Below are positions 190 through 27,364 of a stretch of DNA of 64,000 bases, one piece after another. The stretch is taken from NCBI GenBank assembly GCA_963769935.1, contig CAVYNY010000020.1, forward strand, positions 224,001 to 288,000, read 5' to 3'. The DNA comes from an uncultured delta proteobacterium. Lineage in GTDB: Bacteria; Desulfobacterota; Desulfobacteria; Desulfobacterales; JAFDCJ01. The number at the start of each line of letters is the position of its first letter. Positions within the stretch are counted from its first letter, which is position 1. Below the pieces are notes generated by a model, which had not been told where the DNA came from, made no database searches, and was given only the letters and a program-made list of their open reading frames with translations. The position numbers and the translations under genes were made by a program.

Positions 190-618
190 TCAGTCTTCAG
201 GAGTTTGATGCAATTGACCGGCCTGATGGAGTTCAATTTTAATATATTTTGAGAATAGCTCGAAGTCTTTGTCTGTCGTGTATATTGAAAACCCGTTCCT
301 TGCAGCCACAGCGCAAATTAGGAAATCAGTATTTGATACCTGTATTCCTTTTGATCGGCATCGATTGAAATACTTTGCAGCCGTAACATAGTCTTCGGTG
401 AAAATTTGTAGATCGGGAAAGCTTTCAAGATGTTTCTGGAGCTTTTTAAACTGAGATTCACTGCGGATACCCGATAAAATCTCCTGACGTATGGGGCCAA
501 TCATTTGGACACGGTGGTCTCTGATTATATGCCGAAGCTCTTGAACGGGAGCAAAGGTGCCCTGTTTGTCGCGCCTTAAAGCCAGAGACCATACGCTCGT
601 GTCTACAATAACCTTCAT
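190..618 (-). CDS. vapC: PIN-domain ribonuclease toxin (VapC family)
   Basis: N-terminal VIVDTSVW, internal E (RQEIL), D (TDFLI) and C-terminal YTTDKDF PIN acidic motifs; overlaps upstream small gene by 4 nt. Confidence 0.9.
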   Translation of the reverse strand: MKVIVDTSVWSLALRRDKQGTFAPVQELRHIIRDHRVQMIGPIRQEILSGIRSESQFKKLQKHLESFPDLQIFTEDYVTAAKYFNRCRSKGIQVSNTDFLICAVAARNGFSIYTTDKDFELFSKYIKIELHQAGQLHQTPED

Positions 619-815
619 GTGCGGCGTCTCTGTTTTTTATAGTCATATTCCGGGTCGTATTCCACTTTGCCGAACATTGAGAGAATTTTTTCCTGCTCTA
701 AATGTTGTATATATTCTATTAGTGCCGTTGAGACCGCGTCCTTCTTAGTCTTGTGGCCGCCCAGCCTGACAGCTTTTAAGATAAGTTTGTCATCTATCTG
801 TAAATTTGTCGCCAT
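615..815 (-). CDS. vapB: VapB-type antitoxin (DUF2191-like)
   Basis: MATNLQIDDKLI...KTKKDAVSTAL.EY pattern; AAGGAGG RBS just upstream of ATG at 815; coupled to vapC. Confidence 0.85.
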   Translation of the reverse strand: MATNLQIDDKLILKAVRLGGHKTKKDAVSTALIEYIQHLEQEKILSMFGKVEYDPEYDYKKQRRRT

Positions 816-842
816 AAAGGGCACCTCCTTAAAATCTATAAA

Positions 843-1207: not shown

Positions 1208-2656
1208 CTATTTGAATCGATCGACCCGCTTTTGGATTTGTGCGGCCTGCTCCGCGGGGATATTTGCCGGCTGATGGTCCTGCAGGATTTTTTGCAGTTT
1301 CTTTTGGGCCCGCTCCAGCAGGCTCGTGCTGCCGGATGACTGCCATTTGTCGTGGCCCATGCGGCTGATCAACTTGGGCCGCCACTGGGTGGATTCGAGA
1401 TTCTGCAGGGTATGCAGATGGGCCAGAAAATTGCCGTCCGCCCCCACTTCTTTGATGACATCCACCGCCAGGGTTTTATCGTCGACCGGAATGCCCCGGT
1501 AAAGACGGCGCACCTGATCGATGATTTCGTCCAGAATCACAATCATTTCCAGGCTGCCGGTGAGGCCGAAATCCAGGTACCCCACATCATGATTCAAATT
1601 GGAGCCTGCCAACTGGGCGATGAAGGTTAGAAGGCCGGCTTCGAAGGTGGCCTGCCCGTCCGGGATCTGCGAATCGCTGGTGCCGGCGTAGCCCCAGTTG
1701 GGCAGGTTATAATAATGGCTCATCTCGATGATCGCCAGATAAGACAGAAGATATTCCGGCGCATTGTAGGAGCACTGGCCGGTGGCCATATCCAGCACCG
1801 CCGGCCCCATCCCCATAATAAAGGGGGCGCCCTTGGCTTTAAGCTGGTGGATCACCAGACCGGCAAAACATTCGGCCAGGCCCTGGGCCACATGCCCGGC
1901 AATGGTCATCGGAGCGGTGGAGCCGGCAATCGGGGCCGGCGAAAAGATAACCGGCATGGCTTTTTCGGCGCAAAACAGGAGTTTGTCCACACTCTCGACC
2001 GGAAACTTCAAAGGGCTTACAGGTTCCCCGTAATAAATGGCATACGGCTTGGAGCGCAGCCCGTCTTCCCCGCCGCGCAGGATACACCCGATTGCCCACA
2101 TGGCGCTCAGATCGTCGCGGTTGTCGGCCGTGCAGACAATCGGCTTGGTCGAATTGGCCGCCATGGCCTGGAAGCTGCGCAAATAGGCCTGCTTGGCCGG
2201 ATAGTCGGACGGATTGGCAAAAGACATGATAAAGTCAATGTTGGGCAGGGCGTCGGCCGCCTTGGCTGCCCGGATGACGTCTTCCAGCAGGCAGCGGTGG
2301 CGCTGCATGCTCTTTGAATCCAGGGAGTAAATAAGATCGGAACCGGTGCCGTAATAGGAACGGTGCCCGCCAAGGTCCATGGCCTGTTTGCCTTCGCGGT
2401 CGTAGATCAGGATGTTATTGGGTGCGCTTGCCAGGGCCTGCTGAACAAGTTTCCCGGGGATTTTCACCATGCGCTCTTCTGATACGGAACAGCCGGCATC
2501 TTTGAGAAGCGCCAAGGCTTCGTCGTGGAATATTTTCATGCCGATATCGCTCAGGATCTGAAAAACAGCCCGGTGAATTTTTTCCTTATCCTCTTGGGAG
2601 AGAAACGACAATGTCGGCCGCATGGATATTTCTTCGACAGGTATGGTAGGATTCAT
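1208..2656 (-). CDS. Trimethylamine methyltransferase (MttB) superfamily protein, non-pyrrolysine
   Basis: GSTAPMTIAG, GYAGTSDSQIPDGQATFE, NLNHDVGYL, LAVDVIKEVG..GNFL.H.HT motifs; no in-frame TAG. Confidence 0.92.
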   Translation of the reverse strand: MNPTIPVEEISMRPTLSFLSQEDKEKIHRAVFQILSDIGMKIFHDEALALLKDAGCSVSEERMVKIPGKLVQQALASAPNNILIYDREGKQAMDLGGHRSYYGTGSDLIYSLDSKSMQRHRCLLEDVIRAAKAADALPNIDFIMSFANPSDYPAKQAYLRSFQAMAANSTKPIVCTADNRDDLSAMWAIGCILRGGEDGLRSKPYAIYYGEPVSPLKFPVESVDKLLFCAEKAMPVIFSPAPIAGSTAPMTIAGHVAQGLAECFAGLVIHQLKAKGAPFIMGMGPAVLDMATGQCSYNAPEYLLSYLAIIEMSHYYNLPNWGYAGTSDSQIPDGQATFEAGLLTFIAQLAGSNLNHDVGYLDFGLTGSLEMIVILDEIIDQVRRLYRGIPVDDKTLAVDVIKEVGADGNFLAHLHTLQNLESTQWRPKLISRMGHDKWQSSGSTSLLERAQKKLQKILQDHQPANIPAEQAAQIQKRVDRFK

Positions 2657-2670
2657 TGTTATAGCCCCGG

Positions 2671-2708
2671 AATTTAGTTTGATGGATAAAATTTAGTTTG
2701 ATGGATAA
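2671..2708. repeat. 19-bp perfect tandem duplication
   Basis: aatttagtttgatggataa x2, between the mttB-like start and the IR element. Confidence 0.85.
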
Positions 2709-2709
2709 A

Positions 2710-3031
2710 AATGAATGGATTCGATTTTAATTTCTTTAAGTAGACAGGATTTACAGGATGAACAGGATCTTTTCAAGGTTTCCGGATGAAACCGTGAAAA
2801 CAGCAACCGCCTTCCGGCGCAGTATTGGGCGCTACGTGACTAAGATCAAGGATACCCTATTTATTGATGAACGAAATGCTATTCAAATCTGGGACAACAC
2901 TGAAGCTTCTACATTTTCCGCGAAGCGGATTATCTATTTCCGGTTTCCTCCGGAAACCGGAAATTAAAAATATCCCAACAATCCTGCAAATCCTGTCTAT
3001 TTTTAAAAAATAAAACCAGAATCCATTCGTT
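2710..3031. repeat. ~320-bp non-coding element with nested terminal inverted repeats and 9-mer (ACAGGATnn) arms; MITE-like
   Basis: aatgaatggattc / gaatccattcgtt termini; tagacaggatttacaggatgaacaggat vs atcccaacaatcctgcaaatcctgtcta; internal ggtttcc..gaaacc hairpins. Confidence 0.7.
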
Positions 3032-3060
3032 AATTTATAAAATTAATTTCACTGAATGTT

Positions 3061-4945
3061 TCATGCCGCTAACCCGGGATGATCCTGACTGAATTTGATT
3101 CCCAGTTCGGCCAGTTTGGCCGCCGTCGGCCGGCCCTGCGCGTCCCATCCCATGACGCTGTAAAATTTCTTTCTCATGGGTTCCATCCACTCCGACGGTT
3201 TGGACGGCGCCTGACCGGAATTGTACTCTTTGTCAAAAAACATATCCGGCAGACGATCATCGGCCGCGCCGACGCCGCAGCGCAGGTTAAAGAGCCTTTC
3301 GGTGTTGACGATTCTCTCCCCCGCGGCAAAAAGATCGGCCACTGCAACCGGCTCTCCGGTCAGAGCCGCCGCCAGTTCCGTCTCGGCCACCAGGTCATAG
3401 GCGCAGATGAGGGATAAGGCCGGGACTTTGCATATGCCGAGGCTGTCCATCACCGTGCCGACAATCATGGCCTTTCGAACCAGTTCGGCTTTGCCGTGGA
3501 TGGATTTGAGATCGGAGGCCTTGGGTGTTCCGAACTCCTCGCCGGGCTCGTCCGGCATCCATTTATGTTCCAGCGCGGAGTAGACGTCGTTAAAATCCGC
3601 TCCACGGCTGGCAACCGTATATCCCAGGGCCGTACCCATCATGTTGTCCGGATGATAGCCGGACAGCCCAAGCCCTTTGACATGCGCGGCATAGTATTCG
3701 GATCCTCGCCCGATGATCTGGGCGGCCCGGCGCACGCCTTTGCCAAGCACGGCGCCGAACCCTTGGCCTGAGGCCATCTGTCTGATCAACGCCTCCATTG
3801 AGTTCCCGTTGCCCCAGGCCAGGTCCAATCCGCCGGTATCTTCCAATGTCAGAATATGGCGGTCAAAGAGATCCATGACAAAGGAAATGACGTTGCCGGC
3901 TGAGATATTGTCGATCCCCAGCCGGGAGCAAAGGTTGTCCAGGTAGACCAGGGTGTCCAGATCGGTCAAGCCGCATTTGGCCCCCAGCGACAGCATGGGT
4001 TCGAACTCGGGCCGGAAGACTTTTTCACCCTTGAGCCGGCCGCTGGTAAATTTCAGTTCAGCCTTGCATTGAACGGGGCATCGAAAACAGCCGCGCGACC
4101 GGGTGACCTTGTCCGTCAGATTTTTCCCGTCAATTCGATCCGCAGCCTCAAAGGTATTGGTCCGAAAATTGCGGGTAGCAATAATGCCCAGGTCATCCGC
4201 CCATTTGACGTAGCCGGCTCCCCCGTGCGTTTTAAATGTTTTAAATTCGCGGCGAATTTTTTATCTGCCGGGCATAGCGGATGACGGCTTCATTATCCGT
4301 CACCGGGACCGGAATCGGTTTCGGGGGGTTTTGTCCTTTGATAACAACGGCCTTCAGGTTTTTAGACCCCATGACCGTACCCATGCCGGTGCGTCCGGCG
4401 GCATGATCGCCGTCCGACATGATGCAGCCGAACAGCACGCCGTTTTCGGCGCCCGGACCGATGGTCAAAATCCTTAATTTTTGGCTGCCCAGCATGGTTT
4501 TAAGCTGCTCGTCGGTTTGTCGGGTGTCCAGCCCCCAGAGCGATTCGGCGCTGCGGATTTCAATCGTATCGCCGTCGATCAACAAGTAAACCGGCTTCGG
4601 TGCCTTGCCGCGGATAATCAGGCTTTGAATGCCGCCGGCGCGCAGCTGGGCGCCGAAGGCGCCTCCGATATTCGAGCTTCCCAGGATGCCGGTCAAGGGG
4701 GAACGGGCATTGAGGTGCAGCCTGGAGGAGGAGGGCGCCGCGGTTCCGGTCAGCAGACCGCAGGAAAACATGAGAATGTTCTCGGGCCCGAGGGGATCGC
4801 AATCTTGCGGCAGATTCGCATAAAGATACTGGACATTGAAGCCCCGGCCGCCGAGATACTTCCAGGTCAGCTCGGCGGGGAAAGGCTTGAATTCCCAGGC
4901 TCCCGTACTCAGATCGATTTTAAGAATGCGCCCCAAAAATGCCAT
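3061..4945 (-). pseudogene. aor: Aldehyde:ferredoxin oxidoreductase (W/Mo-pterin), one +1 frameshift near 4250
   Basis: LGGRG, ARSPLTG, AAGRTGMGTVMGSKNLKA, CFRCPVQC, RPEFE, DDRLP motifs; removing one base at ...NSP|EFKTFKTHGG joins 4241-4945 to the frame of 3061-3996. Confidence 0.88.
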
Positions 4946-5118
4946 GCTGCAGAGTGTCCTTTAAGCGCTTGCCGGGTGTGCCGCCGGCGAGCTTATAATT
5001 TATGGAGACATTATATTTTAGGGAAACTTGAAGCGAGTGTCAAGGATGATGGCGCGGATGTGAAGGTATCGTTAAAGTAAATTCTAAAGCAGTTGCAGCG
5101 GCAGGTTTTAAAAGATAA

Positions 5119-5336
5119 CAAAATTCCAAATTTCAAGCACCAAATTCCAAATAAATTTCAAATCCCAATATCCAATGACCGAAACATTCATCAGAGTTGT
5201 ATCGTATCCGCTTCTAAACCCAGGTCTGCCGTTGATCTTTCCATTAGATACAATCGTCAAATGATTATTTGTTTGGAATTTTGAATTTCGGTGATTGGTA
5301 TTTGTTTGGAATTTGGTTTTTGGAGCTTGGAATTTG
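5119..5336. repeat. Inverted pair of degenerate 7-mer arrays (CAAATTC / GAATTTG)
   Basis: aaattccaaatttcaagcaccaaattccaaat... at 5119-5185 and gtttggaattttgaatttc...ttggaatttg at 5271-5336. Confidence 0.75.
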
Positions 5337-5401
5337 TCATAACCTCATACTGATTATTTGACTTCGAGCACTTTTATTAGGGACCTAACGCTTAATTCTA
5401 C

Positions 5402-6937
5402 CTACTTTAATTTTCCAACCTTCTTTTCCACTGCGGCCAGTATCTTGCCGCTGCACATCAGCTCCCGCATGGCGGTGATGTCGTGTGACAGGATGCGATC
5501 GCAGTCCAGATTAGGAATCACCTCGCGGATGACGCGGTAGGCTTCCATGGTGCCCTCACCGGGTTTCAGGTTGGTGAAAAGGTCCAGGGCCTGGGCGGCG
5601 CACAGAAGTTCGATGGCGACCACATCCCGGGTATTGTTTACCACCTCGCGGCACTGGCGGGCTGCGATAGTGCCCATGGAGACATGGTCTTCCTTGTTGG
5701 CCGAGGTGGGGATTGAATCCACGCTGGCCGGATGGCAGAGCACCTTGTTTTCAGACACCAGGGCCGCCGCCGTGTACTGGGCGATCATAAAACCGGAATT
5801 AAGCCCGCCGTCGCCGACCAGAAAGGCCGGCAGTCCGCTCAGCATGGGATTGACCAGCCGCTCGATTCGACGCTCGGAAATATTGGCCAGTTCGGCAACG
5901 GCCATGCTCAGAAAATCCATGGCCAGAGCCACCGGCTGCCCGTGAAAGTTGCCGCCCAGCAAAAAGTCCTGGGTTGCGGCATAAATCAGCGGATTGTTGG
6001 TGGATGAATTCATCTCGGTTTCGATAACCTTGCGGCAATAGTTGACGGCGTCCTTGGTGGCGCCGTGCACCTGGGGCGAACACCTGAGGGTGTAAGCATC
6101 CTGCACCCGGCCGCAGTCCTTGTGGGAGGTTATGATTTCGCTGTTGCGGACAATTCGTTCCATGTTGTCGGCGGCCGCGGCCTGGCCGGGATGCGGCCGG
6201 ATGGCATGGATCCTGGCATTGAATTCGGTGCGGCTGCCCATCAGTACCTCGAGACTCATGGCGGACGCTATATCGATCAGCTTGGAAAAATGGACGGCGT
6301 CATTGACCGCCAAAGCGCCGATCGCGGTCATCACCTGGGTGCCGTTGACCAGCGCCAGACCTTCTGCAGCCTCCAGTTGGATGGGCTCCAGACCGCACTT
6401 GCTCAGCACCTGCTGACCGGTCATTTTCTGCCCTTTGTAAAACGCTTCACCCAGTCCGACCAGAACCAGCGCCAAATGGGCCAGGGGCGCCAGGTCGCCG
6501 CTGGCTCCGACCGAGCCTTTCTGCGGGATCAACGGGCAAACACCCCAGTTGAGAAGCGCAATCAGGTGTTCGACGGTCTCAAGGCAGATGCCGGAATGAC
6601 CGCGGGCCAGATCCTGGATTCGCAGTGCCATGACGGCGCGTACGGTTTCCTCGTTCAGCGGTTCACCGACGCCGGCTGCATGGCTCATGAGAATATTTTG
6701 CTGCAGCCGGCGCGTGTCTTTTTTGGAAATCACCACATCACTTAACGCACCGAATCCGGTGGTAACGCCGTATATGGTTCTTTCTTCCTCAACCCATTTT
6801 TCGATCAAGCGGCGGGTATCCCGCAATCTTTGTTCCGAAGCTTCGGTTAATTTGACATGCGCGCCCTGCCTGGCGATTTTGACCAGTTTCTCCAGCGTCA
6901 TGCCGTCCATGTCGATCATAATTGTTTTTGCAGCCAA
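5402..6937 (-). CDS. hutH: Histidine ammonia-lyase
   Basis: IYGVTTGFG, LMSHAAG (His-selective SH), GSVGASGDLAPL (MIO-forming ASG), VQDAYTLRC, GGNFHG, EDHVSMG. Confidence 0.96.
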   Translation of the reverse strand: MAAKTIMIDMDGMTLEKLVKIARQGAHVKLTEASEQRLRDTRRLIEKWVEEERTIYGVTTGFGALSDVVISKKDTRRLQQNILMSHAAGVGEPLNEETVRAVMALRIQDLARGHSGICLETVEHLIALLNWGVCPLIPQKGSVGASGDLAPLAHLALVLVGLGEAFYKGQKMTGQQVLSKCGLEPIQLEAAEGLALVNGTQVMTAIGALAVNDAVHFSKLIDIASAMSLEVLMGSRTEFNARIHAIRPHPGQAAAADNMERIVRNSEIITSHKDCGRVQDAYTLRCSPQVHGATKDAVNYCRKVIETEMNSSTNNPLIYAATQDFLLGGNFHGQPVALAMDFLSMAVAELANISERRIERLVNPMLSGLPAFLVGDGGLNSGFMIAQYTAAALVSENKVLCHPASVDSIPTSANKEDHVSMGTIAARQCREVVNNTRDVVAIELLCAAQALDLFTNLKPGEGTMEAYRVIREVIPNLDCDRILSHDITAMRELMCSGKILAAVEKKVGKLK

Positions 6938-7005
6938 TGGTTGCTCCTTATATAGGTTTCAGGTTTCAGGCGTCAGCGTCGACCGCCGAAGTCTATCAGC
7001 TTATA

Positions 7006-8466
7006 TCAGGCCAATTCCTTCTCCCCGCGCTTTTTTATCTCCTCCAGGCTCGCCAGGGTCTTATCGCCAAGGACCGGCGGCCGGTGTGTTTCCAGGATTT
7101 GCTGAATCTTTTCCCGCACCCGGGTGGCCGTATCTTTGGCGCCGGCTTCCTGCCACCGAGTGTACTGCTGGCGCGTAAATATATCGGGACGCCAGAGTTC
7201 ATGCTGGAAATGCTGCAGGGTATGCTTTGTATCAAGAAAATTACCGCCCGGTCCGACGGATGCAATTATCTCCCGCGCCAGAGCTTGCCGGGATATCTCG
7301 AACCCGCGCAAAAACCGCTTGGTCATTCCGATAAGTTCGTTGCCGACGATCAGCTGTTCCACCGCACAAACCATCCCCATGTCCATGTAGCCGACGTCGT
7401 GAATCAAATTCAGACCCGCCAGCCCCTGCGCCATTATATGGAAGGCGGCTTCGGCGCCGGCCTGGGCATCCAGAACTTTGGCATCGGTAGAGCCGGCCAG
7501 ACCCCAGGTGGGCAGGCCGAAGTGCTGGGCGACCTCGGCCTGGGCCGCCAGGGCTAGGCTCATTTCGGGCGCGGCCGTGCACATCAGCCCGGTGCCCATG
7601 TCGAAAATGCCGAAATTACATCCCAGTCCCACGGGGCTGCCCGGACGGCGAAGTTGAACCAGCACCAGCCCCATCAATGATTCCGCCAATCCCTGGGCGA
7701 CTGCGCCGGCTATCGTCACCGGACCCGTGGCGCCGGGCTGGATCGCCGGGCCCATCATCTGCGGCAGGCCCAGATCGGCGGCGACAAACATTCGCGCCAC
7801 CACCTCGGCGGGAAAGACAAGCGGCGAGATCGATTCGGGATACAAGACCAGAAACGGTTTTTCGCGCAGTCGGTCAAGCCCGCCGCTGACGGCTGCGGCC
7901 ATTTCGTAAACCAGTTCCGTGCCGCGTGCCGAATAGGTCAGGAAAACGATCGGTTTGGCGGTGTTGCCGACAACCGCCGCAAACTCATGCAAGTCGGCGG
8001 CTTTGGCCGGCACATCCTGGCAGGAGCCCATGGGCATCACCCAGTCGATATGTTCCAGGCTGTCGGCTATTTTGGCAGCCCGCGCGATGTCGGCGACGGT
8101 GGTCGGATGCACCGCACCGGTCAGGGCGTCTTTGGTGTTGGGGCTGGCGGTGGAGGTGCCGTAGTAGCTTTTTCGGTTTTCAACCTCCAGGGCCCGCTGC
8201 CCTTCACGATTGTAGATGGTCCAGCCCCTGGGTGCGGTGTTAAGGCATTGCCGGACAATAAACTCCGGCACTCTGATACGATCTTCGGAAACGACGGCGC
8301 CGGCCTTCTTCAGCATGGTTCCGGCATCCGGATGCAGGACTTTGAATCCCACCTTCTCCATCACTTCGAATGCCGCCCGGATTAGTTGCTGAATCTGATC
8401 ATCGGTCAGCATCCTGAACAACGGACTTTGTTTTTTCGTCGAGTTGGTCTGAATCATAATCCGCAC
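7006..8466 (-). CDS. MttB superfamily methyltransferase, non-pyrrolysine (start may be 8457)
   Basis: GATGPVTIAG, GLAGSTDAKVLDAQAGAE, NLIHDVGYM, VGPGGNFL..KHT. Confidence 0.92.
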   Translation of the reverse strand: MRIMIQTNSTKKQSPLFRMLTDDQIQQLIRAAFEVMEKVGFKVLHPDAGTMLKKAGAVVSEDRIRVPEFIVRQCLNTAPRGWTIYNREGQRALEVENRKSYYGTSTASPNTKDALTGAVHPTTVADIARAAKIADSLEHIDWVMPMGSCQDVPAKAADLHEFAAVVGNTAKPIVFLTYSARGTELVYEMAAAVSGGLDRLREKPFLVLYPESISPLVFPAEVVARMFVAADLGLPQMMGPAIQPGATGPVTIAGAVAQGLAESLMGLVLVQLRRPGSPVGLGCNFGIFDMGTGLMCTAAPEMSLALAAQAEVAQHFGLPTWGLAGSTDAKVLDAQAGAEAAFHIMAQGLAGLNLIHDVGYMDMGMVCAVEQLIVGNELIGMTKRFLRGFEISRQALAREIIASVGPGGNFLDTKHTLQHFQHELWRPDIFTRQQYTRWQEAGAKDTATRVREKIQQILETHRPPVLGDKTLASLEEIKKRGEKELA

Positions 8467-8650: not shown

Positions 8651-8822
8651 GTGTGCCCGTTGGCCCGTCTGCCGGTCAGCCGGTTTTCATGTGGGCCGGT
8701 AAACCGAAACGGGCCGGCGAACCTGTAGGCTGACCGGGCAGCTGACTAATCGGCCGACGGGTCAACCGGATAACCGGTCAACGAGCAAACGGGCCAACGG
8801 GCCAACCGGCTAACGGAACAAC
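8651..8822. repeat. Inverted 8-mer arrays (GTTGGCCC / GGGCCAAC family)
   Basis: left arm ~4 units at 8651-8686; right arm 9 units at 8751-8822. Confidence 0.8.
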
Positions 8823-8897
8823 CCGTCCCACTATTCACCGCATTGATTAGGGCTTTGCGACACCTAGAAAAAATACTTGATCAAAGGAGTTAAGTAC

Positions 8898-10202
8898 ATG
8901 GATAAAAATTATGATGCAATCATTGTCGGCGCCGGCATCATCGGTTGCTGTACGGCTTTTGAGTTGGCGAAAAGGGGCTACAAAACGCTTAACGTTGAAA
9001 AACTGGGGGCCTCGGGGCAGGGGTCGACCGGGGGGTCGTGTGCCATCATCCGGCTGCACTACTCGACGCCCGACGGTGTCGCCATGGCCCGTGAAGGCTA
9101 TTACTACTGGCTTGAATGGCCGCAACATCTGCAGGTCGAAGACAAGGCCGGCATGGCCCGCTACGTCAACACCGGCTGCCTGGTTATCAAAACAGCCCTG
9201 AACAAATATCTGAAAAATGTTATGGCCAGTCTGGACAATATGGGCGTCGCTTACGAAGAACTGGATCGGGCCGGCATCCGGGAAAAAATGCCGCTGCTGG
9301 ATCTGCAGACATACTTTCCACCCAAGCTTCTCAACGATCCGGATTTCGGCCGCCCCACCGGCGAAGCCATCGAGGGCGCAATTTTTGTCCCCGAGTCCGG
9401 CTACATCACCGACCCGCAGCTGTCGACCCACAATGCCCAGATGGCAGCCGAGGCCAAAGGCGGGGAGTTCCGGTTCAATGCCGAAGTTGTGGAAATTCTG
9501 AAAAAGGACGGTCGGGTGGCCGGCGTCCGATTGAAAGACGGATCACGGGTATACGCGCCCGTGGTTGTTAATATCGCCGGGCCGCATTCGTATCTCATCA
9601 ACCGCATGGCCGGGGTCGAGAAGGGCATGAAAATCAAGACCCGGGCCCTGCGGCAGGAAGTCTGCCATGTGCCCGCCCCCGAAGGTTTTGACTACGAGAA
9701 AGCCGGAATGATCATATCGGACGGCGATATCGGCTGCTACTCGCGCCCGGAAGTCGGCAATCACGTGCTGATCGGCAGCGAAGATCCGGAGTGTGACGAA
9801 CGCGAATTTGTCCATCCGGATGATTATGACAGCAGCTTCACGGACCAGTGGACCACCCAGGCCATGCGCGAAGCCCAGCGCATCAAAGGGCTGCCCATCC
9901 CCAACCAGGCCCAGGGCGTCGTCGACCTTTACGACGTCTCCGACGACTGGATTCCGATTTACGACAAATCCGATTTGCCGGGTTATTACATGGCCATCGG
10001 CACATCGGGAAATCAATACAAAAACGCCCCGGTAGCCGGCGTATTAATGGCCGAGTTGATTCAAAAGGTCGAAGCCGGCCACGATCACGACAACGATCCG
10101 GTCAGGTTCGTCATGCGGCATACCGGCCGGGAATGCAACATCGGTTTTTTCAGCCGGTTAAGAGAGATCAACCCCGATTCCAGCTTTTCGGTCATCGGAT
10201 AA
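8898..10202 (+). CDS. FAD-dependent oxidoreductase, DAO / sarcosine-oxidase-beta-like
   Basis: IIVGAGIIG dinucleotide motif, GST..S.AIIR, VVNIAGP, YDVSDDWIPI, GTSGNQYKNAP; AAGGAG RBS. Confidence 0.9.
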   Translation: MDKNYDAIIVGAGIIGCCTAFELAKRGYKTLNVEKLGASGQGSTGGSCAIIRLHYSTPDGVAMAREGYYYWLEWPQHLQVEDKAGMARYVNTGCLVIKTALNKYLKNVMASLDNMGVAYEELDRAGIREKMPLLDLQTYFPPKLLNDPDFGRPTGEAIEGAIFVPESGYITDPQLSTHNAQMAAEAKGGEFRFNAEVVEILKKDGRVAGVRLKDGSRVYAPVVVNIAGPHSYLINRMAGVEKGMKIKTRALRQEVCHVPAPEGFDYEKAGMIISDGDIGCYSRPEVGNHVLIGSEDPECDEREFVHPDDYDSSFTDQWTTQAMREAQRIKGLPIPNQAQGVVDLYDVSDDWIPIYDKSDLPGYYMAIGTSGNQYKNAPVAGVLMAELIQKVEAGHDHDNDPVRFVMRHTGRECNIGFFSRLREINPDSSFSVIG

Positions 10203-10243
10203 TCCCCCGGCTTCAAGATCCCCAGGGATTTCAAGGTAGAGAT

Positions 10244-11245
10244 ATGAATAAGGTCCTGCTGGAGGTCCGCGATCTGCGCGTATACTTCCATGTCAAGGAA
10301 GGCGTCGCCCGGGCGGTCGACGGAGTTTCCTTCAAGCTCCGGCGGGGTGAAACCCTGGGACTGGTCGGGGAAAGTGGCTGCGGTAAGACCGTGACCTCGC
10401 TTTCGATTTTGAAACTGCTGGATGTCCCGCCGGCTGAATATCGGGGGGGAGAGATCCTTTTCGAAGGACGGGATCTGCTTAAAGCCGGCGAAAAGGAAAT
10501 GCGCCGGGTGCGGGGCAAGACGATTTCCATGATCTTCCAGGAGCCCATGACCTCGCTGAACCCGGTCTTGTCCATCGGCTTTCAGATTGCAGAGGTGCTG
10601 ACCACCCACCATAAAATGCGGCCGGCATCCGCCCGTGACCGCGCCGTTGAGTTGTTGACCATGGTGGGCATTCCATCACCCGAGCGACGGGTGGATGAGT
10701 ATCCGCACCAGCTGTCCGGCGGAATGCGGCAGCGGATGATGATTGCCATGGCGCTGGCCTGCAATCCCCAGGTGCTGATTGCCGATGAGCCCACCACGGC
10801 GCTGGACGTTACCATCCAGGCCCAGATCCTGGAGTTGATGAACCGGCTGCAGGCCGACCTGGGAGCCAGCGTTCTGCTGATCACCCATGACCTCGGGGTC
10901 ATTGCCGAGACGGCCCGGCGGGTGTCCGTCATGTATGCCGGCCGGATTGTCGAGGAGGCCGATGTAAAGACAATATTTAAATCCCCGGTCCATCCCTACA
11001 CCCAGGGGCTGCTGCAGTCCATACCCAGAATCGACGAGGAGCAGCGGCCGCATCGGCTGAGCGAAATACCCGGGCGGGTGCCGAACCTGTGTTTTTTGCC
11101 GCGCGGCTGTGCTTTTTATGACCGCTGCCCGATTCACATAGCGCAGTGCGTCGCGGAACGGCCTGAACTGCTGCCGGTGGAGGAAGGGCATCTGGCTGCC
11201 TGCTGGAGAGCCGAGGAGACCCTGAAAGGATCAAGCCTTGGCTGA
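10244..11245 (+). CDS. oppD: Peptide/nickel ABC transporter ATPase (OppD/DppD-like)
   Basis: [37 protein letters not shown]. Confidence 0.92.
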
Positions 11246-12203
11246 AGCGCTTATCGAAGTTGACGGACTCGTCAAGCATTTTGCGATCAAACGGGGTATT
11301 TTCTCCCGGGTGTCCGGTTATGTCCATGCGGTGGACGGCATCAGCCTGCGGGTGATGAAGGGCCAGACGCTGGGACTGGTCGGGGAAAGCGGCTGCGGTA
11401 AAACAACGGCCGGCAAAACGATCCTTAAACTGCTGGAGCCGACCGCCGGCACCATTCGATACAACGGGGACGATATCACCCACTACAAACGGTCGCAAAT
11501 GAAGGGGCTGCGGCGGGAAATGCAGATTATTTTTCAGGATCCGTTCTCCTCGCTGAATCCGCGCCATACGGTCAGTGCGATCATTGCCGCGCCTTTGGAA
11601 ATTCACAAGCTGGTCGATCCGTCGCAGAAGGAAGACCGGATCGCCGATCTATTGCGCAAGGTCGGTCTGTCGGCCGCCGCCATGCGACGCTATCCCCACG
11701 AGTTTTCCGGCGGTCAGCGGCAGCGAATCGGCATTGCCCGGGCGTTGGCGGTGAACCCCCGGCTGATTGTGGGCGATGAACCGGTTTCGGCGTTGGATGT
11801 ATCCATTCAGGCTCAAATTTTGAACTTACTGGAAGACCTGCAGGATGAGCTGGGTCTGACTTACCTCATGATTGCCCATGATTTGAGCGTCATCCGTCAC
11901 ATCGCCGATGTCATCACCGTCATGTACCTGGGTAAAATCGTTGAAACCGCCGCGAACAGGGAGCTATACCGGCATCCGCTGCATCCCTACACCCAGGCCC
12001 TGCTCTCGGCCGTGCCGATACCCGACCCGGAGCACAAGCCGCAGCGGATGATTCTGAAGGGCGACGTACCGTCTCCGATTCGGCCGCCGGCGGGCTGCCG
12101 CTTTCATCCGCGCTGCCCGCAGCGGTTTGAGCCTTGCGACAAAATAGAGCCCGAGTTCAAGATCGTTGAAGACGGCCACGGCGTTGCGTGTCATTTATAC
12201 TAG
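11238..12203 (+). CDS. oppF: Peptide/nickel ABC transporter ATPase (OppF/DppF-like)
   Basis: [34 protein letters not shown]. Confidence 0.92.
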
Positions 12204-12260
12204 TGATAGAAGCGGGAGGCCGGCGGCGCAAAAATCAGGATCGGCCGCAGGAGGTTAGCG

Positions 12261-13214
12261 GTGCTACAATACATCATCAAACGGGTTCTACAGGCCATAC
12301 CGCTTCTGATCGGTGTATCGATCATCGGTTTTTCCATGATGCACCTTGCACCCGGGGGACCGCTGGCCGTTTACACCCTTAATCCGACCATTACCGCCCA
12401 GGACATCGAACGGATCAAACAGGTATTCGGCCTCGACCAGCCGCTTCACATTCAATACTTTAAGTGGGCGTACGGTATTTTTACCGGCAACTGGGGCTAT
12501 ACCTTTTTCGGCGGCCGGCCGGTTCTGAACGTGATCCTGGAGCGGTTTCCGGCAACCCTTTTACTGATGGGGTCGGGAATGTCCCTGGCCATCATCCTCG
12601 GCATGCTGATCGGTATTCTGGGTGCGGTCCGGCGCTACTCGATTTTCGACTACCTGGCGACCAGCGGGGCCATGGTGGCGCTTTCCTTTCCGACATTCTG
12701 GTTCGGGCTGATGACCATATTCTTATTTTCACTAAAGCTCGGCTGGCTGCCGTCCGGCGGCATGTACACCCTGGGCGGGGAAGAAGGCATCCTGGATATT
12801 TTAAAGCATTTAATCCTGCCCACGGTGGTCCTGGCTCTGGTGCTCGTGGCCCAATGGAGCCGCTATTCACGCTCCAGTTTCCTGGAAGTCATTCATCAGG
12901 ACTACATTCGAACCGCCAAATCCAAGGGGCTTTCCGGGGGCCGCATTCTGTTTCGCCATGCGTTCCCCAACGCCGTGGCACCTTTGATTGCGCTGGCCGG
13001 AATCCAGCTTCCCTGGCTTTTCTCGGGTGCCCTGGTGACCGAAACCATTTTTGGATGGCCGGGGATGGGGCGCCTGTTTGTCGATGCGCTGACAATGAAA
13101 GAATACCCCGTGCTGATGGGCATGGTCATGATTACGGCCATATTTGTAATTATCGGCAATCTTTTGGCCGACCTAATGAATGCGCTCATCGATCCGCGGA
13201 TAAGATTGCAATGA
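12261..13214 (+). CDS. oppB: ABC transporter permease (OppB/DppB-like)
   Basis: FGLDQP, DYIRTAKSKGL, ETIFGWPGMG, IDPRI. Confidence 0.92.
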   Translation: MLQYIIKRVLQAIPLLIGVSIIGFSMMHLAPGGPLAVYTLNPTITAQDIERIKQVFGLDQPLHIQYFKWAYGIFTGNWGYTFFGGRPVLNVILERFPATLLLMGSGMSLAIILGMLIGILGAVRRYSIFDYLATSGAMVALSFPTFWFGLMTIFLFSLKLGWLPSGGMYTLGGEEGILDILKHLILPTVVLALVLVAQWSRYSRSSFLEVIHQDYIRTAKSKGLSGGRILFRHAFPNAVAPLIALAGIQLPWLFSGALVTETIFGWPGMGRLFVDALTMKEYPVLMGMVMITAIFVIIGNLLADLMNALIDPRIRLQ

Positions 13215-14161
13215 TGACTGATTCAAACCAGACCAAAATCGATGGGACCGGGGACGCCGAACCTGGCGACGGCCGGGAGCACGCTCCCGTCGCGGGGCTG
13301 ACCATCCACTATTATGAGAGCCAGAGCCGGCGGATCTGGCGGCGGTTTTTACAGCACCGGCTGGCCGTGGCGGGCGGCGGCGTGGTGATCATGCTGCTGC
13401 TTATGGCGCTGCTGGCCGGTTTTATCTCGCCGCACGACCCCCTGGCCCTGGACACGCAGCGACGGTTTATCCCCCCATTGAAGGAGTCGAATTATTTTCT
13501 GGGAACCGATGAAATGGGGCGGGATTTGCTGAGCCGGCTTTTCTACGGCGGCCGCATCAGCCTGGTGGTCGGCGTGGCCGCCATGTTTGCCACGATCGTG
13601 ACCGGTCTGACCATCGGACTGATATCCGGTTTTTACGGCGGCAAAGTGGACATGATCCTGATGCGCTTCACCGACACGATGCTCTGCTTTCCGCAGGTGT
13701 TTCTGCTGCTGGTGCTGGCGGCCTTTATTACCCCGACGGTGATTTCCATCGCTCTGATTATCGGACTGACATCCTGGATGGAGGTGGCCCGTATCATTCG
13801 CGCTCAGATCCAGTATGTCAAAGAGCAGGATTTCGTGCAGGCGGCGTTTGCACTGGGCGCCTCGGAAATGCGCATTATGTTCAAAGAGCTGCTGCCCAAT
13901 GCCCTCGCACCGGTCCTGGTATCCGCGACCCTCAATGTCGCCAATGCGGTGCTCATGGAGTCGTATATCAGCTTTTTGGGGTACGGCATTCAGCCGCCGC
14001 TGGCCAGCTGGGGCAATATGTTGACCAACGCCCAGTCTTACTTTGATTTGGCCCCCTGGCTGGCCATTTTGCCCGGGGCCATGATCACCTTGACGGTGAT
14101 GAGTTTTAATTTCCTGGGAGACGGTCTGCGCGACGCCCTGGATCCCAGGCTGAGAATGTAG
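13211..14161 (+). CDS. oppC: ABC transporter permease (OppC/DppC-like)
   Basis: LGTDEMGRD, FVQAAFALGAS, SWGNML, NFLGDGLRDALDP; ATGA overlap with oppB. Confidence 0.92.
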   Translation: MMTDSNQTKIDGTGDAEPGDGREHAPVAGLTIHYYESQSRRIWRRFLQHRLAVAGGGVVIMLLLMALLAGFISPHDPLALDTQRRFIPPLKESNYFLGTDEMGRDLLSRLFYGGRISLVVGVAAMFATIVTGLTIGLISGFYGGKVDMILMRFTDTMLCFPQVFLLLVLAAFITPTVISIALIIGLTSWMEVARIIRAQIQYVKEQDFVQAAFALGASEMRIMFKELLPNALAPVLVSATLNVANAVLMESYISFLGYGIQPPLASWGNMLTNAQSYFDLAPWLAILPGAMITLTVMSFNFLGDGLRDALDPRLRM

Positions 14162-14279
14162 CCTGGGAGGTAAAGTCAAAGCCTGACCTTCCGGCCAGGA
14201 TTTTAAACCTGATGCGCTGAACTCGGCTGACGGCATTCATTGCGCCATACCAGCCACAACCTTGAAAAGGAGAATTGCT

Positions 14280-15917
14280 ATGGAACGAAAAGGAATGACC
14301 AGACGTGATTTTATCAAGACCACCGGGGCCTTGACGGCTTTCGCTGCGGCGGCCGGCATGGGCATCCCCCGGCGGGCCTGGGCCGGGAAAAACAACGTTA
14401 TCATCGGCATGACCCAGGAGCCGGTCAACTTCAATGCCCTGCTGTATGTCAATTCCGGCACCGAAGAAGTTCCGGAAGCCTGCATTTTCGATGCCCTGTG
14501 GGACGTGAACGACAAGGGCGAATTCATACCGAATCTGGCCGTCCGCGTGCCGACCCTGGAAAACGGCGGCATCTCCCCGGACGGACTGGTCTGGAAGATC
14601 GAGCTGAAAAAGGGCGTCAAGTGGCAGGACGGCGCCCCGTTTACGGCCAAAGATGTTGAGTTCACTTACCAGACCATCGTCAATCCCAAAGTGGCCATCC
14701 GCTCGCGGTCGGGATTCGACCTGATCTCCGAATTTAAAATCATCGACGACTACAATGCGGAGATCCATCTTGCCAAGCCGTTTGTGCCGTTTGCCTGGGC
14801 CTGGCAGAAAATGCACATTGTCCCCGAACACATTCTGGCCAAAGTCCCGGACATCAACACGGCGCCGTACAACACCAACCCAATCGGGACCGGGCCTTAC
14901 AGACTGGTCAAACGGGTCGCCGGCAGCCACATGGTGTACAACCGCAACATGGAATACCATCGCGGTGCCCCGGCCATTGAAACGGTAATTCACAAATTCG
15001 TGCCCGATCAGACCGTGCTCTACACCCAGTTTAAAACCGGTGAGATCGATGTGCTCGGCCTGCACGGCGTGCCGCCCGAAAGGTTTGAAGAATCCCGCCA
15101 CCTGCCGGGCCTTGACGCGCTCGAGACCCCCGCGCCCTGGGTCGAGTTTATCTATTTCAACTGCGGCAAACCCCAATTCGAGGAAAAAGTCGTGCGCCAG
15201 GCGCTTTACTATGCCGTGGACAAGGAAAAGTGGATCAAGGACATCTACTACGGTCTGCCGCCCCGCACGCTGTCCTATCTGCACCCGAATCACTGGGCTT
15301 ACAATTCCAATCTGAAAGACCCCGGCTTCGATCCGGGACGTGCGGCCGAGATGCTCGATGCCGCCGGCTGGAAGAAGGGCTCCGACGGCATCCGCGAGAA
15401 AAACGGGGTCAAGCTGAAGTTCTCCATGTCCACCACCGCCGGCTCCAAAGCCCGCGAACAGGCCGAGGCCATGGTCCAGGCCAACTGGAAGGAAATCGGC
15501 GTGGCCATGGAAATCAAAAACATGCCCGCCTCAGTGGTCTGGGGCGAGTACACCACCAAGAGCCAGTTCGACACCCTGATGGTCGGCTGGGAGCCCACTG
15601 TGGGCATGGATCCGGACTACACCGCCCGCTGCCATTCCAAGCAGATCCCCGCCAAGTACGGCACCGGTTCGAATTATGTGCAGTATGAAAATCCCGCGTT
15701 GGACAAACTGCTGGAAGAAGGCGTGCTCATATCCGACATGCAGAAGCGTAAAGCCGTCTACGACAAAATACAGGCCATCCTGGCCGATGACGTCCCCTTC
15801 GCGCCGATCTTCGCCTACACGTTCATGTATGGCAAAAAGAGCGATCTGCAGGGATATAAAATCAACCCCTATGTGACCGACATTACCTGGAACATCCAGG
15901 ACTGGTCGTGGTCATAA
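14280..15917 (+). CDS. Family-5 substrate-binding protein with Tat signal
   Basis: TRRDFIK twin-arginine motif; GVKWQDGAPFTAKDV, PIGTGPY, VRQALYYAVD. Confidence 0.92.
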   Translation: MERKGMTRRDFIKTTGALTAFAAAAGMGIPRRAWAGKNNVIIGMTQEPVNFNALLYVNSGTEEVPEACIFDALWDVNDKGEFIPNLAVRVPTLENGGISPDGLVWKIELKKGVKWQDGAPFTAKDVEFTYQTIVNPKVAIRSRSGFDLISEFKIIDDYNAEIHLAKPFVPFAWAWQKMHIVPEHILAKVPDINTAPYNTNPIGTGPYRLVKRVAGSHMVYNRNMEYHRGAPAIETVIHKFVPDQTVLYTQFKTGEIDVLGLHGVPPERFEESRHLPGLDALETPAPWVEFIYFNCGKPQFEEKVVRQALYYAVDKEKWIKDIYYGLPPRTLSYLHPNHWAYNSNLKDPGFDPGRAAEMLDAAGWKKGSDGIREKNGVKLKFSMSTTAGSKAREQAEAMVQANWKEIGVAMEIKNMPASVVWGEYTTKSQFDTLMVGWEPTVGMDPDYTARCHSKQIPAKYGTGSNYVQYENPALDKLLEEGVLISDMQKRKAVYDKIQAILADDVPFAPIFAYTFMYGKKSDLQGYKINPYVTDITWNIQDWSWS

Positions 15918-16946: not shown

Positions 16947-19608
16947 TTAAGACTCACTTCGTCCGGCGCTGACCATCTGGGCCAGCGACCGGGCCATATT
17001 GTCCAGGAACGCTTCATCCGGAAGCGAAATCGTCATTTTCAAGGTGCCGTCGTCCGCTTTTTCCATGCAATCGCTCAATTTGGCTTTGAAGGCACCGGCC
17101 AGCTGCGTCATTTCTTCCGATTCCTCCCTGGCTGAAAACATTTCACCGATAAACGCAAAGGCCGCCCCCATCAGTTTTCCGCCGGCCGCGGCGATTTTTT
17201 CTTTTCTGGCCAGTGCTTCGGCCTCCTTCTCAACCTGTTGCCGCATGCTTTCATCTTCGGCGGCATCCGGTTTTTCTCCCAGCAGAACCTCCAGTCTTCG
17301 TTTGAGCTCTTCCATGCCGGTGGCCATGTCAACCTTTGTCAGCTCGCAATCCGGATCGAGCACGGCCTGGGCAAGTTCATGCTTGGCGGAAAGCGTTGCC
17401 AGCAGGTTTTCTTCCAGGGTGTTTTCGGTCACCAGCAGATAGACCTGCACCGGCCGTTTCTGACCCATGCGATGCGCCCGACCGATGCGCTGCTCCAGGA
17501 CGGCCGGATTCCATGGCAGATCGACATTAATGACCGTATTGGCGGCCTGCAGGTTCAATCCGGTGGAACCGGCATTGGTGGTAATAAACAACCTGCAATC
17601 GGGGTCATTCTGAAACCGGTGCATGAGCGCCTGGCGCTTTTTTTGAGGCACGGACCCGTCCAGTCTGACATAATTCAGCTGCTGCTTTTCCAGAATCGGT
17701 TCGATCAGATTCAGCATGGTGGTCCATTCGGAAAACAGGACAACTTTGCGATCATCCTCCGCCATGAGCTGCTCCAGCAGTTGGCTGAGTTCGGCCAATT
17801 TGCTGGAGTACCCCGGCGGCTGCTTGTCCACTAAGAAGGTGCTGTCGGCGCACATCCGGCACATCAGCAGCGCTTTTTGCAGCCGGAGCAGATCCATTTC
17901 CGTCAGATATCTTTTCTGGATAATGGTCTGAATAATCTGGCGGTGTCCTTTCTGCAAATCAAGCTGCTCTTCGGTCGGCGGAATTCTTAAGATTTGATTG
18001 GTGCGCGGCGGCAGGTCTTTAATCACCTGCTGGCGGGTGCGTCGCAGCATGATCGGTTTGAGCTGATCTCTTAATGTATCAAGATTTTTGTAGCCTAGCA
18101 GTTTGCCTTTTTCATCGACCACCCGGTGGCGGTTGAAAAACCGAAATGCCGGTCCCAGCCTGCGATCGTCGATGAATTCCACCACCGAAAAAAGCTCGTC
18201 AATGCGGTTTTCAAGGGGCGTTCCCGAAAGCACCAGGGCAAAGGGGGATTTTAACGCCTTGATGACCCGGCTGGTTTTGGCCTCCCAGTTTTTGATGCGC
18301 TGGCCTTCGTCCAGGATAATCAGGTCCCACCGGACACGCTCGATCGACAGAAAATCACGCAGCACCTGCTCGTAGTTGCAGACCGTAAAAAAGCTGTCGC
18401 TTTCATACTGCGCCGGTCGATCCTTGGCACTTCCCAGAATAAGCCGGCAGCTGCGGTTGCTGAACCGCTTGATCTCGATGCGCCACTGCGATTTCAGGGA
18501 AGCCGGACAGATCACCAGCACCTTGGTGATGGTCGCATGCCGGGACAGCAGTTCGGCCACCCCGATGCCCTGGATGGTTTTGCCCAGACCCATGTCGTCG
18601 GCCAGGACCGCCCGGCCGGCCCCGGCGGCAAAGGCCACCCCGTCCAGCTGGTAGGGCAGCAATTCGGCTTTGAGCAGGGTCCGCCGCAGGGGATGCGTTT
18701 TCGGGTTTTCACGAATCCCGGCCACACTTTCGCCCATGCGCTCCTGGAACAGCTTGTGGTTGATGTATTCTTCGGCATCCGGATAAACCGTTACCGGGGC
18801 ATCCAGGTTCTCAAGCCGCCGGATGCAGTGGATCAGGCTTCTTTTACATTTTTAATTGCTGTGTCTCTGAAGGGTTTGACCAGCTTTGAGATTTCCGGGA
18901 TCAAGATTGTCCGGAATCAGCATGCCGAGCTGCAGCTGCTCGGCCGTAGCGCAGGTAAACACAGAGGTCATTGATTTCGGCCGGCGTTTCTCTGACGGTC
19001 TTGTTGAATTTTTTCCGGACCTGTCCAAGGCGCAAATGATGTGCTTGCAGGTGCCGAGCGTATTTTTGCGGAAATCCGGACACGAACAGTATGACTCGCC
19101 CAATTCCCAGCCCCGCAGGGCGATGCGATAACTTTTGCCGGAAACCTGACTGGTAAGGATATATTCGGTCCACAAGGCGCCTGGATCGAGCGATTGCAGT
19201 CGCATTTTTTCGGTTTGCGCTCTTTGTCTCCGATCGGCAAGTGCTTCTTCGACCAGGGCTTCGTCGCTCAGGCTCTCCATGGGGATTCTTTCAGGCGGCG
19301 GCGCCGCAAGCCCCAGCGTCAGTTTTTCCTCTAAAATCAGAGATAGGGCCGCCCCCTGATGTTCACAGGCACCGGGACAGACGCTGCAGTGAATGTTCAA
19401 ACGCTGCGCTTTTTGGGGATCGAGGCGGATGGAGACCTCTGGCCTCTTCGAGGTTCAGCCTGAAATGCTCGTTGTTGAAAGTTACCTGCTCAAACACGTC
19501 AATCTCATATTTACCGCCTTCCAAAATCAATTGCTTTCCTTGTGGGCCCAGCAGCTTGCAGGCTTGCGCATAAGAAAGACGAGACAGCTTATCTTTCAAT
19601 GTTATCAT
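16947..19608 (-). pseudogene. SWIM-finger SNF2/DEAD-like helicase, several frameshifts in the 5' third
   Basis: CSCPDF...CKH SWIM; LADDMGLGKT, ILDEGQ, SGTPLEN, GLNLQ, WNP, QRIGRAHR; the N-terminus continues across ORFs 19363-19608, 18852-19400, 18901-19173 and 16947-18737. Confidence 0.85.
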
Positions 19609-26370: not shown

Positions 26371-26380
26371 GGAGAAAAAA

Positions 26381-27286: not shown

Positions 27287-27287
27287 G

Positions 27288-27364
27288 GCTGGATGCTGGA
27301 TACTGGATGCTGGATACTGGATGCTGGATGTTGGATGCTGGAAGCTTGATACCGGCTGCTGGAT
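27288..27364 (+). repeat. 11 x 7-mer array (RCTGGAT)
   Basis: gctggat gctggat actggat gctggat actggat gctggat gttggat gctggaa gcttgat accggct gctggat. Confidence 0.9.

Follow-up and report, generated by a model that had tools for sequence, protein, structure and literature searches.

A conserved hutH-aor-mttB gene cluster as a candidate module for the degradation of methylated histidines

Genes of the cluster

The window analysed here is a stretch of 64,000 nucleotides from an uncultured delta proteobacterium of the Desulfobacterales (assembly GCA_963769935.1, contig CAVYNY010000020.1, positions 224,001 to 288,000). It contains a cluster of four genes encoding two methyltransferases of the MttB superfamily (MttB_A and MttB_B), a histidine ammonia-lyase (HutH) and a tungsten oxidoreductase of the AOR family, hereafter AOR* (Table 1). 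Among relatives, the conserved core of this cluster is aor-mttB_B with hutH, which we tentatively read as a module converting a modified histidine to histidine.

A preceding sequence-only reading had described the same-strand order mttB-hutH-aor-mttB, a gap of 68 bp between mttB_A and hutH and a location of the remaining hut/formimino genes 17 kb away from hutH (24106-29870), and the coordinates agree on each point. It was equally right that both MttBs are non-pyrrolysine proteins, with no in-frame TAG and Ser/Thr at the pyrrolysine position, that HutH retains the SH (residues 85-86) and ASG (145-147) motifs, and that the window lacks a corrinoid protein gene, as no B12-binding gene was found there.

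Table 1 Features of the window
Feature	Position	Strand	Description
mttB_A	7006-8466	minus	486 aa, non-pyrrolysine MttB-superfamily methyltransferase, clade A; accessory member
hutH	5402-6937	minus	511 aa, canonical histidine ammonia-lyase dependent on 4-methylideneimidazole-5-one (MIO)
aor*	3061-4945	minus	tungsten AOR-family oxidoreductase of a distinct subfamily; split at 4249/4250
mttB_B	1208-2656	minus	482 aa, non-pyrrolysine MttB of the hut-linked clade; predicted methylated-histidine demethylase
Sigma-70-like promoter match	5015-5043	minus	11/12 consensus match, upstream of aor
hutU	24106-26157	plus	urocanate hydratase (long type); TIGR01228 above cut-off
ftcD	26381-27286	plus	glutamate formiminotransferase; TIGR02024 above cut-off
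hutI	27967-29259	plus	imidazolonepropionase; TIGR01224 above cut-off
fchA-like	29253-29870	plus	formimino/methenyl-tetrahydrofolate cyclo(de)aminase/hydrolase; NF045657 204 bits, below cut-off 275
Amine oxidase-like gene (FAD-dependent) and ABC importer of the dipeptide type	8877-15917	plus, divergent	PF01266, PF00496; membership in the cluster uncertain, travel with mttB_A

The aor reading frame is broken into two open reading frames by a one-base insertion, a point the sequence-only reading had not mentioned. The extra base is missing from four of four public sequencing runs and relatives encode intact AOR proteins of 618-646 aa; hence the frameshift is an assembly error and the gene is intact in nature. 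The absence of the base from all four runs also led us to reject a pseudogene, and a chimeric assembly at the mttB_A-hutH junction was rejected since a single contig of run X1 covers 6444-7426. Further genes appear split or truncated by frameshifts (window 16947-19400 and 58940-59791; C20:190.7-192.1 kb; C22:218.6-220.0 kb), among them an SNF2-like helicase, a URO-D/MtaA-like protein, an MttB and an oxidase paralogue, which suggests insertion and deletion errors in this assembly.

Contigs from RNA libraries of related strains span hutH, aor and mttB_B; such contigs cannot demonstrate transcription or operon structure. Five promoter-like sites were found against 5.3 expected in shuffled sequences, and the site upstream of aor is a consensus match only, from which aor-mttB_B may be transcribed as a separate unit. 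Multi-copy intergenic repeats lie between the genes of the cluster (2717-2800, 5121-5335 and 8767-8820); they match about 24, 80 and 40 copies in the genome, and some are missing or replaced in related strains.

Conservation of the cluster

In a set of 60 related genomes, among the 146 non-own MttB matches listed (246 further matches lie beyond these), hutH occurs within 10 kb of 6 of 14 MttB_B orthologues, 3 of 31 MttB_A-like proteins and 6 of 101 other MttBs, an arrangement beyond chance. The six other MttBs near hutH all belong to a second hut-linked cluster with a molybdenum enzyme, described below. Of the 22 non-own genomes with aor*, 21 carry one copy and G012 has two truncated pieces; by coordinates the gene adjoins hutH in 10 and mttB_B in 11 of the relatives' genomes.

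A GTDB-wide scan extended the comparison to the best 80 of 208 MttB_B relatives, about a dozen of which lie on the same contigs as in the 60-genome set. In 53 of these 80 loci, aor* immediately precedes mttB_B on its upstream side. A hutH gene was found in 23 (16 as hutH-aor-mttB_B, four as hutH-mttB_B without aor and three further off), any of hutH, hutU, hutI or ftcD in 25, and an A-clade MttB (at least 50% identity) in 21. Where at least 4.5 kb of upstream sequence is available (54 loci), aor* is found directly upstream in 36 and hutH in 14. Locus L159 exemplifies the form without aor*: hutH adjoins mttB_B, followed by importer-hutU-ftcD-fchA, all behind hutC. The sequence-only reading had made its proposal depend on conservation of the mttB-hutH neighbourhood and would have abandoned it for an adjacency unique to this genome; the adjacency is conserved and also occurs in a second phylum. 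Conservation holds for mttB_B, across families of the Desulfobacterales, but not for mttB_A, which contacts hutH directly in one of 22 same-genus genomes. This contact, found elsewhere in G022 only, is nearly lineage-specific; in G022 (L071) the oxidase gene and the ATPase and permease genes of the transporter likewise lie beside mttB_A.

The association of AOR* with these genes was compared with that of generic AORs, retrieved by a metagenome scan with the AOR* alignment, which returned one subfamily member and otherwise generic AORs. In the 79 mostly generic loci, with a mean of 10 kb as against 14.7 kb, hutH was found in none and mttB in one. As the tightest partner of mttB_B and with a distinct active site, AOR* is no bystander.

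Outside the core, an E-like MttB followed by a methionine-gamma-lyase-like gene was observed in L190, L192 and the own genome (G000 C20:190.7-193.5 kb), in two of these loci co-operonic with aor*-mttB_B; the pair hints at a parallel route for S-methyl amino acids.

Occurrence in Actinomycetota

The search covered 121 actinobacterial genomes of the class of G061, and the loci of the 20 top-scoring matches, from 19 genomes, were retrieved. B-clade MttBs with about 46-55% identity are encoded in 20 of the 121 genomes, and a gene of the histidine ammonia-lyase (HAL) family or hutU is found in 10 of the 20 loci. Two of these, L314 and L317, are one-strand operons with the order importer-aor*-mttB-mttB_B-hutH-corrinoid-FeS-hutI-ftcD-fchA-hutU-MeTr, with aor* at 45% identity; in L370, aor* and MttBs lie inside another hut operon. 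Each of the eight actinobacterial genomes that encode AOR* encodes a B-clade MttB as well. Ergothionase-like lyases and MttBs carrying Arg312 (MtgB numbering) are encoded beside B-clade genes in this phylum.

An uncharacterised protein of about 360 aa with a C-terminal 4Fe-4S dicluster is encoded in 10 of the 20 actinobacterial B loci (L313, L314, L317-L321, L323, L325 and L326), in 5 of the 80 desulfobacterotal B loci and in none of the 79 generic AOR loci. Its gene frequently comes next after mttB_B or the corrinoid gene. A copy is present in the own genome (G000 C20:195.6-196.6 kb; L001:11572-12639). The protein could serve AOR* in electron transfer or represent a novel corrinoid activator.

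The MttB proteins

MttB_A and MttB_B, 38% identical to each other, affiliate with the MttB superfamily (328 and 283 bits on PF06253, cut-off 25) and score below the cut-off of the pyrrolysine model (TIGR02369; 372.5 and 383.8 bits, cut-off 525). MtgB binds glycine betaine via Tyr97, Phe356, His348 and Arg312; the last of these binds the carboxylate and is retained in all characterised betaine MttBs, including MtcB, MtpB, MthB and MtyB (available part of PMC13080624). Of this residue set, both window proteins retain His348 alone, with Tyr97, Arg312 and Phe356 replaced by Thr, Trp and Gly. Trp occupies the Arg312 site in all 79 B and all 26 A sequences compared and in 21 of the 22 from Actinomycetota, which places these proteins apart from MtgB and the characterised quaternary-amine MttBs. 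MttB_A contains the motif HDVGY. The Trp/HD motif, shared with clade C and some E-like MttBs, marks a wider non-betaine-like group rather than a single substrate.

In a FastTree reconstruction the MttB_B clade comprises 100 sequences, has a Shimodaira-Hasegawa-like support of 100 and covers Thermodesulfobacteriota and Actinomycetota. Arg312-bearing MttBs are frequently encoded beside B-clade genes. Six full-length MttBs are encoded in the own genome, and the window contig carries four of these inside a stretch of 45 kb. An AlphaFold model of MttB_B was unusable (pLDDT 42, 10-sequence alignment).

The AOR* subfamily

An intact AOR* orthologue contains the Pfam domains AFOR_N and AFOR_C, and the four Fe-S cysteines are conserved in 53 of 53 sequences, so that AOR* belongs to the AOR/WOR family. 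The subfamily is recognised by the motifs R-P-E-F-E, G-x-D-F/Y in place of G-G-C-H, and C-K. The Glu313/His448 pair has catalytic roles in the AOR of Pyrococcus furiosus. In AOR* the glutamate is retained and the histidine is replaced by Phe (36 sequences) or Tyr (17), while Arg311, Asp450, Lys506 and His181 are invariant in all 53; AOR* is hence not a canonical aldehyde:ferredoxin oxidoreductase in the strict sense. Four other AORs encoded in the same loci carry the usual Gly and His. From its atypical active site, which the sequence-only reading had missed, and its neighbours, AOR* is predicted to act as a desulfurase.

Histidine ammonia-lyases and related lyases

The window HutH scores 696.9 bits on TIGR01225 (cut-off 539), and its active-site segments align with the HAL of Pseudomonas putida, including the MIO triad, the His83 motif and the catalytic Tyr residues. 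It is the sole histidase of the genome; the only other homologue is PAL-like and located on C12. Ergothionase and related trimethylammonia-lyases lack the MIO triad, and the ASG of the window HutH sets it apart from them; no MIO-less lyase was found in the own genome. Four actinobacterial loci (L313, L315, L320 and L321) encode MIO-less lyases that lack the Lys384 of ergothionase. The one lyase matched to PDB, that of L321, has ergothionase as its best match and Ile in place of Lys384. Lyases without Lys384 act on sulfur-free histidine betaine or N-pi-methyl histidine betaine (available parts of bioRxiv 10.1101/2025.08.13.670108 and 10.64898/2026.04.22.720169). Such an adjoining lyase would already remove the alpha-amine methyls, so that MttB_B would have to act on another methyl.

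One canonical HAL has been tested with 1-/3-methylhistidine and mercaptohistidine, and the available part of PMC11432326 reports activity only for histidine, its methyl ester and, with mutants, histidinamide. In a quick IQ-TREE reconstruction of 48 HutH sequences most of the aor*- and B-linked enzymes grouped together with weak support; more than one HutH lineage takes part in the linkage of hut genes with MttBs. A HAL-like clade near B-clade MttBs (L315, L318, L322 and L324), 41-43% identical to the window HutH, has NH in place of the SH motif and may act on a modified histidine.

A second hut-linked cluster

Five loci of the Desulfobacterales (L061, L063, L065, L066 and L067 in G021, G017, G025, G056 and G018) carry a second hut-linked cluster. 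Its HutH belongs to a more distant group (63% identity) and is encoded beside an acetylene-hydratase-like molybdenum oxidoreductase. A sister MttB clade, C, is present in four of the five loci, as are a stop-free (non-pyrrolysine) MtmB and a corrinoid protein; most loci include a ferredoxin gene, and some a polar amino-acid ABC importer, an amidohydrolase and an arginase-family gene. The same molybdenum enzyme is encoded beside B-clade MttBs in four actinobacterial loci. Acetylene hydratase is among its top PDB matches; a comparison with the motifs of the metallopterin enzyme MES was made by eye only, and none of the best 120 homologues has a fused cysteine desulfurase domain. Hut genes, a corrinoid methyltransferase and a molybdenum or tungsten oxidoreductase thus come together repeatedly, with different lyases, in different gene orders and in different phyla, and the second cluster is possibly a convergent version of the same pathway.

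Partners in the genome and other genes of the window

In the own genome (8.0 Mb, 41 contigs), a corrinoid protein and a MeTr-type pterin-binding methyltransferase are encoded at C9:75.7-77.5 kb and a RamA homologue at C20:82-84 kb; the genes for a corrinoid-dependent methyltransferase system are hence present, and in L314 and L317 the corrinoid and MeTr genes are co-operonic with the cluster. A matching importer with an SBP5 binding protein and a 355-aa Fe-S protein are encoded about 25-30 kb before the window. The PDB matches of the transporter binding proteins are generic peptide/nickel binders and uninformative on the ligand. No MtmB was found in the own genome.

A small gene pair just downstream of mttB_B (190-820, minus strand) resembles a VapBC (PIN-domain) toxin-antitoxin module. 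At 35450-42893, a run of membrane and large/small-subunit genes resembles, by translations only, a group 4 (Hyf/Hyc-like) hydrogenase.

Proposed pathway and alternatives

For the MIO-dependent HutH, a substrate has to carry a free alpha-amine and probably a ring without substituents, and the neighbours of hutH would most simply prepare such a compound. We infer, tentatively, from neighbourhood and motifs that hutH, aor* and mttB_B form a conserved module that turns a histidine carrying methyl and sulfur groups into plain histidine; the methyl would most likely sit on a ring nitrogen, as in ovothiol or in anserine-derived N-pi-methylhistidine. Judged by co-location, the substrate would be imported by the SBP5-type ABC transporter. 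AOR* would reductively strip the imidazole sulfur, by analogy with molybdenum enzymes that make or break this C-S bond. MttB_B would then transfer the ring methyl to the corrinoid protein, MeTr would pass it to tetrahydrofolate (THF) and RamA would reactivate the corrinoid, a chemistry known for these families on other substrates. Further methyls, where present, would be removed by MttB_A or other MttBs, with those on the alpha-nitrogen handled by extra MttBs, MtmB or an amine lyase. Via the known pathway, whose genes are present, HutH, HutU, HutI, FtcD and FchA would yield glutamate and formimino/methenyl-THF, and THF would collect both the methyl and the formimino carbons. The hutH-mttB_B pair alone would be a complete route for a singly ring-methylated histidine; with a reductive desulfurase added, ovothiol A becomes a fitting substrate. 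It combines a ring N-methyl with a ring thiol (available part of 10.64898/2026.04.22.720169) and occurs in marine invertebrates, algae and protozoa (available part of PMC10903977). The idea of the sequence-only reading that MttBs feed a methylated histidine into HutH and THF is strengthened by the conserved adjacency and by complete hut operons with corrinoid and methyl-THF transferase genes; its suggestion of hercynine as a direct substrate is disfavoured by the Trp at the Arg312 site of both MttBs. Since both lack the carboxylate-binding Arg, demethylation of a ring nitrogen (Nπ-methylhistidine, ovothiol) is favoured over hercynine.

Several observations weigh against this proposal. No hutH was found in the fetched DNA of 57 of the 80 B loci, many of them on short contigs, and 40 of the 54 loci with at least 4.5 kb upstream have none directly upstream; the near-complete genomes G038 and G052 encode MttB_B and gave no hutH match. 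Other recurrent neighbours of mttB_B are methionine-gamma-lyase-like, PrpD-like and ECH genes. Given the weakly supported single HutH group, much of the linkage in Desulfobacterales could stem from one inherited operon, and if their hutH-aor-mttB_B loci go back to one ancestral operon, counts among kin overstate the support. The promoter-like site of aor*'s own adds to these points. A scan for HutC operators gave 9 matches, as against an expectation of 6.9. No match lay near the window cluster, and four hutC-hutH loci had none upstream of hutH. The Trp/HD motif, common to several MttB clades, is not diagnostic of a substrate. We know of no AOR-family desulfurase, and orthology of the molybdenum enzyme of the second cluster with MES was not established. 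Gene content, linkage, motifs and partners are observed, and the substrate and the AOR* reaction are derived from them. At least one HAL takes N-tau-methylhistidine directly, as cited in PMC11432326 (available part).

A rather unlikely alternative, and the one nearest to the sequence-only reading, is that AOR* desulfurises ergothioneine at C2 and that the N-alpha methyls (or an S-methyl) are taken off one by one by MttB_B, MttB_A and their paralogues until the product suits HutH. The frequent presence of two or more MttBs (A clade in 21 of 80 loci), the ergothionase-like lyases and Arg312-bearing MttBs of the actinobacterial loci and the reversible metallopterin C2 sulfur transfer of MES (available part of PMC9516567) fit such a route, as does the own genome, where no MIO-less lyase was found and a betaine would thus require demethylation. 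Yet A and B lack Arg312, the binder of the alpha-betaine carboxylate, the four lone hutH-mttB_B pairs would need one enzyme to remove three methyls, and a trimethylamine lyase beside MttB_B would make N-alpha demethylation redundant. The module might instead process no sulfur at all, with MttB_B demethylating N-pi/N-tau-methylhistidine or a related imidazole and AOR* carrying out C-O chemistry (oxidation of an imidazole aldehyde or of imidazolone C2). Apart from benzoyl-CoA reductase, the solved structures matched within the AOR family all bear the name aldehyde oxidoreductase, Glu313 is retained, and M20 and S15 peptidases near some B loci fit anserine as a source. We nevertheless consider this quite improbable, as the invariant loss of His448 together with the gain of Arg, Lys and Asp marks a specialised site in AOR*, and the unrelated molybdenum enzyme in the same slot elsewhere suggests a step required before the lyase.

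The pair aor*-mttB_B could also serve a methylated compound that is no histidine derivative; its position near hut genes would then reflect inheritance and the fact that both feed into THF and glutamate metabolism within catabolic islands for amino acids. This would account for aor* (53 of 80) being a tighter partner than hutH (23 of 80), for the two MttB_B genomes without a hutH match and for the many MttBs clustered with other amino-acid enzymes in these genomes. It is made unlikely by the embedding of both genes in complete one-strand hut operons in two phyla and different gene orders, by the adjoining lyases of the histidine-betaine type and by the persistence of the hutH-mttB_B contact after loss of aor* (four loci). 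A biosynthetic direction, i.e. production of hercynine or ergothioneine, was set aside, as the complete set of degradative hut genes shares operons with importers. Combining the three readings in which a histidine derivative is demethylated, we consider it probable that the substrate is a methylated histidine of some kind. That the cluster represents the first catabolic pathway for ovothiol-type thiohistidines, in which an AOR-family tungsten enzyme acts as reductive imidazole C-S lyase and an MttB as cobalamin-dependent ring-N demethylase to regenerate histidine, with an unrelated molybdenum enzyme convergently filling the desulfurase slot in other lineages, is a bolder proposal and rather unlikely.

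No substrate is known for most non-pyrrolysine MttBs, of which single sediment Desulfobacterales can encode up to dozens; a widespread MttB clade here gains a concrete, assayable substrate class and an active-site signature. If correct, the proposed pathway would be a further route by which ovothiol, ergothioneine and methylhistidines are consumed anaerobically, both in marsh and marine sediments and in symbionts of worms; loci of Olavius Delta 1 and Delta 3 carry aor*-mttB_B. Two enzyme families would each gain a new reaction, MttB the demethylation of a ring nitrogen and the tungsten-dependent AOR family the cleavage of a C-S bond. Among cultured bacteria, Desulfacinum infernum DSM 9756 and D. 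hydrothermale DSM 13146 are carriers.

Comparison with known systems

The MtgB/MtgC/MtgA system of Desulfitobacterium hafniense and MtpB, MtcB, MtyB and MthB of Eubacterium limosum share the non-pyrrolysine MttB fold and His348 with the window proteins. MtgB-type systems need a corrinoid protein, MeTr and RamA, here encoded elsewhere in the genome; they differ from the window system in that Tyr97, Arg312 and Phe356 are replaced here and the genes are linked to hut genes and a tungsten oxidoreductase (available part of PMC13080624). No histidine derivative is described as an MttB substrate in the literature searched, a preprint on caffeine N-demethylation names no MttB, and a full-text search, with most subscription journals outside its reach, returned no paper linking MttB or AOR to the catabolism of histidine derivatives.

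The best PDB match of AOR* is the tungsten AOR of P. furiosus (1AOR, E 8e-102), with which it shares the four Fe-S cysteines and Glu313. In contrast to 1AOR, His448 is replaced by Phe/Tyr, GPEYE by RPEFE, and AOR* has subfamily-specific Arg, Lys, His and Asp residues. MES provides a precedent for reversible imidazole C-S chemistry at a molybdenum or tungsten centre in anaerobes; whereas MES is a biosynthetic enzyme of the DMSO-reductase family with a fused cysteine desulfurase, AOR* is a stand-alone member of the AOR family encoded among catabolic genes (available part of PMC9516567). Desulfurisation of thiourocanate by Blautia, cited in the available part of 10.64898/2026.04.22.720169, is a precedent for sulfur removal.

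Similar to the pathway proposed here, the routes via ergothionase, histidine-betaine lyase and N-pi-methyl-histidine-betaine lyase are anaerobic uses of methylated or thiolated histidines (PDB 6S7J; available parts of bioRxiv 10.1101/2025.08.13.670108 and 10.64898/2026.04.22.720169). In these, trimethylamine is eliminated, followed by acrylate reduction or desulfurisation, whereas here the methyls would go to cobalamin and THF and the window lyase is MIO-dependent. Ring-methylated histidine is likewise degraded via hut-like steps in Bacillus terra, which reportedly keeps the methyl of N-tau-methylhistidine to the end and employs adapted hut paralogues; here, a single housekeeping hut set would act after demethylation. 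Relative to folate-dependent histidine degradation, all genes are present and HutH is canonical, with demethylation and a redox module predicted to be added upstream. The cluster is a real and conserved addition to histidine catabolism that combines known families and appears not to have been described.

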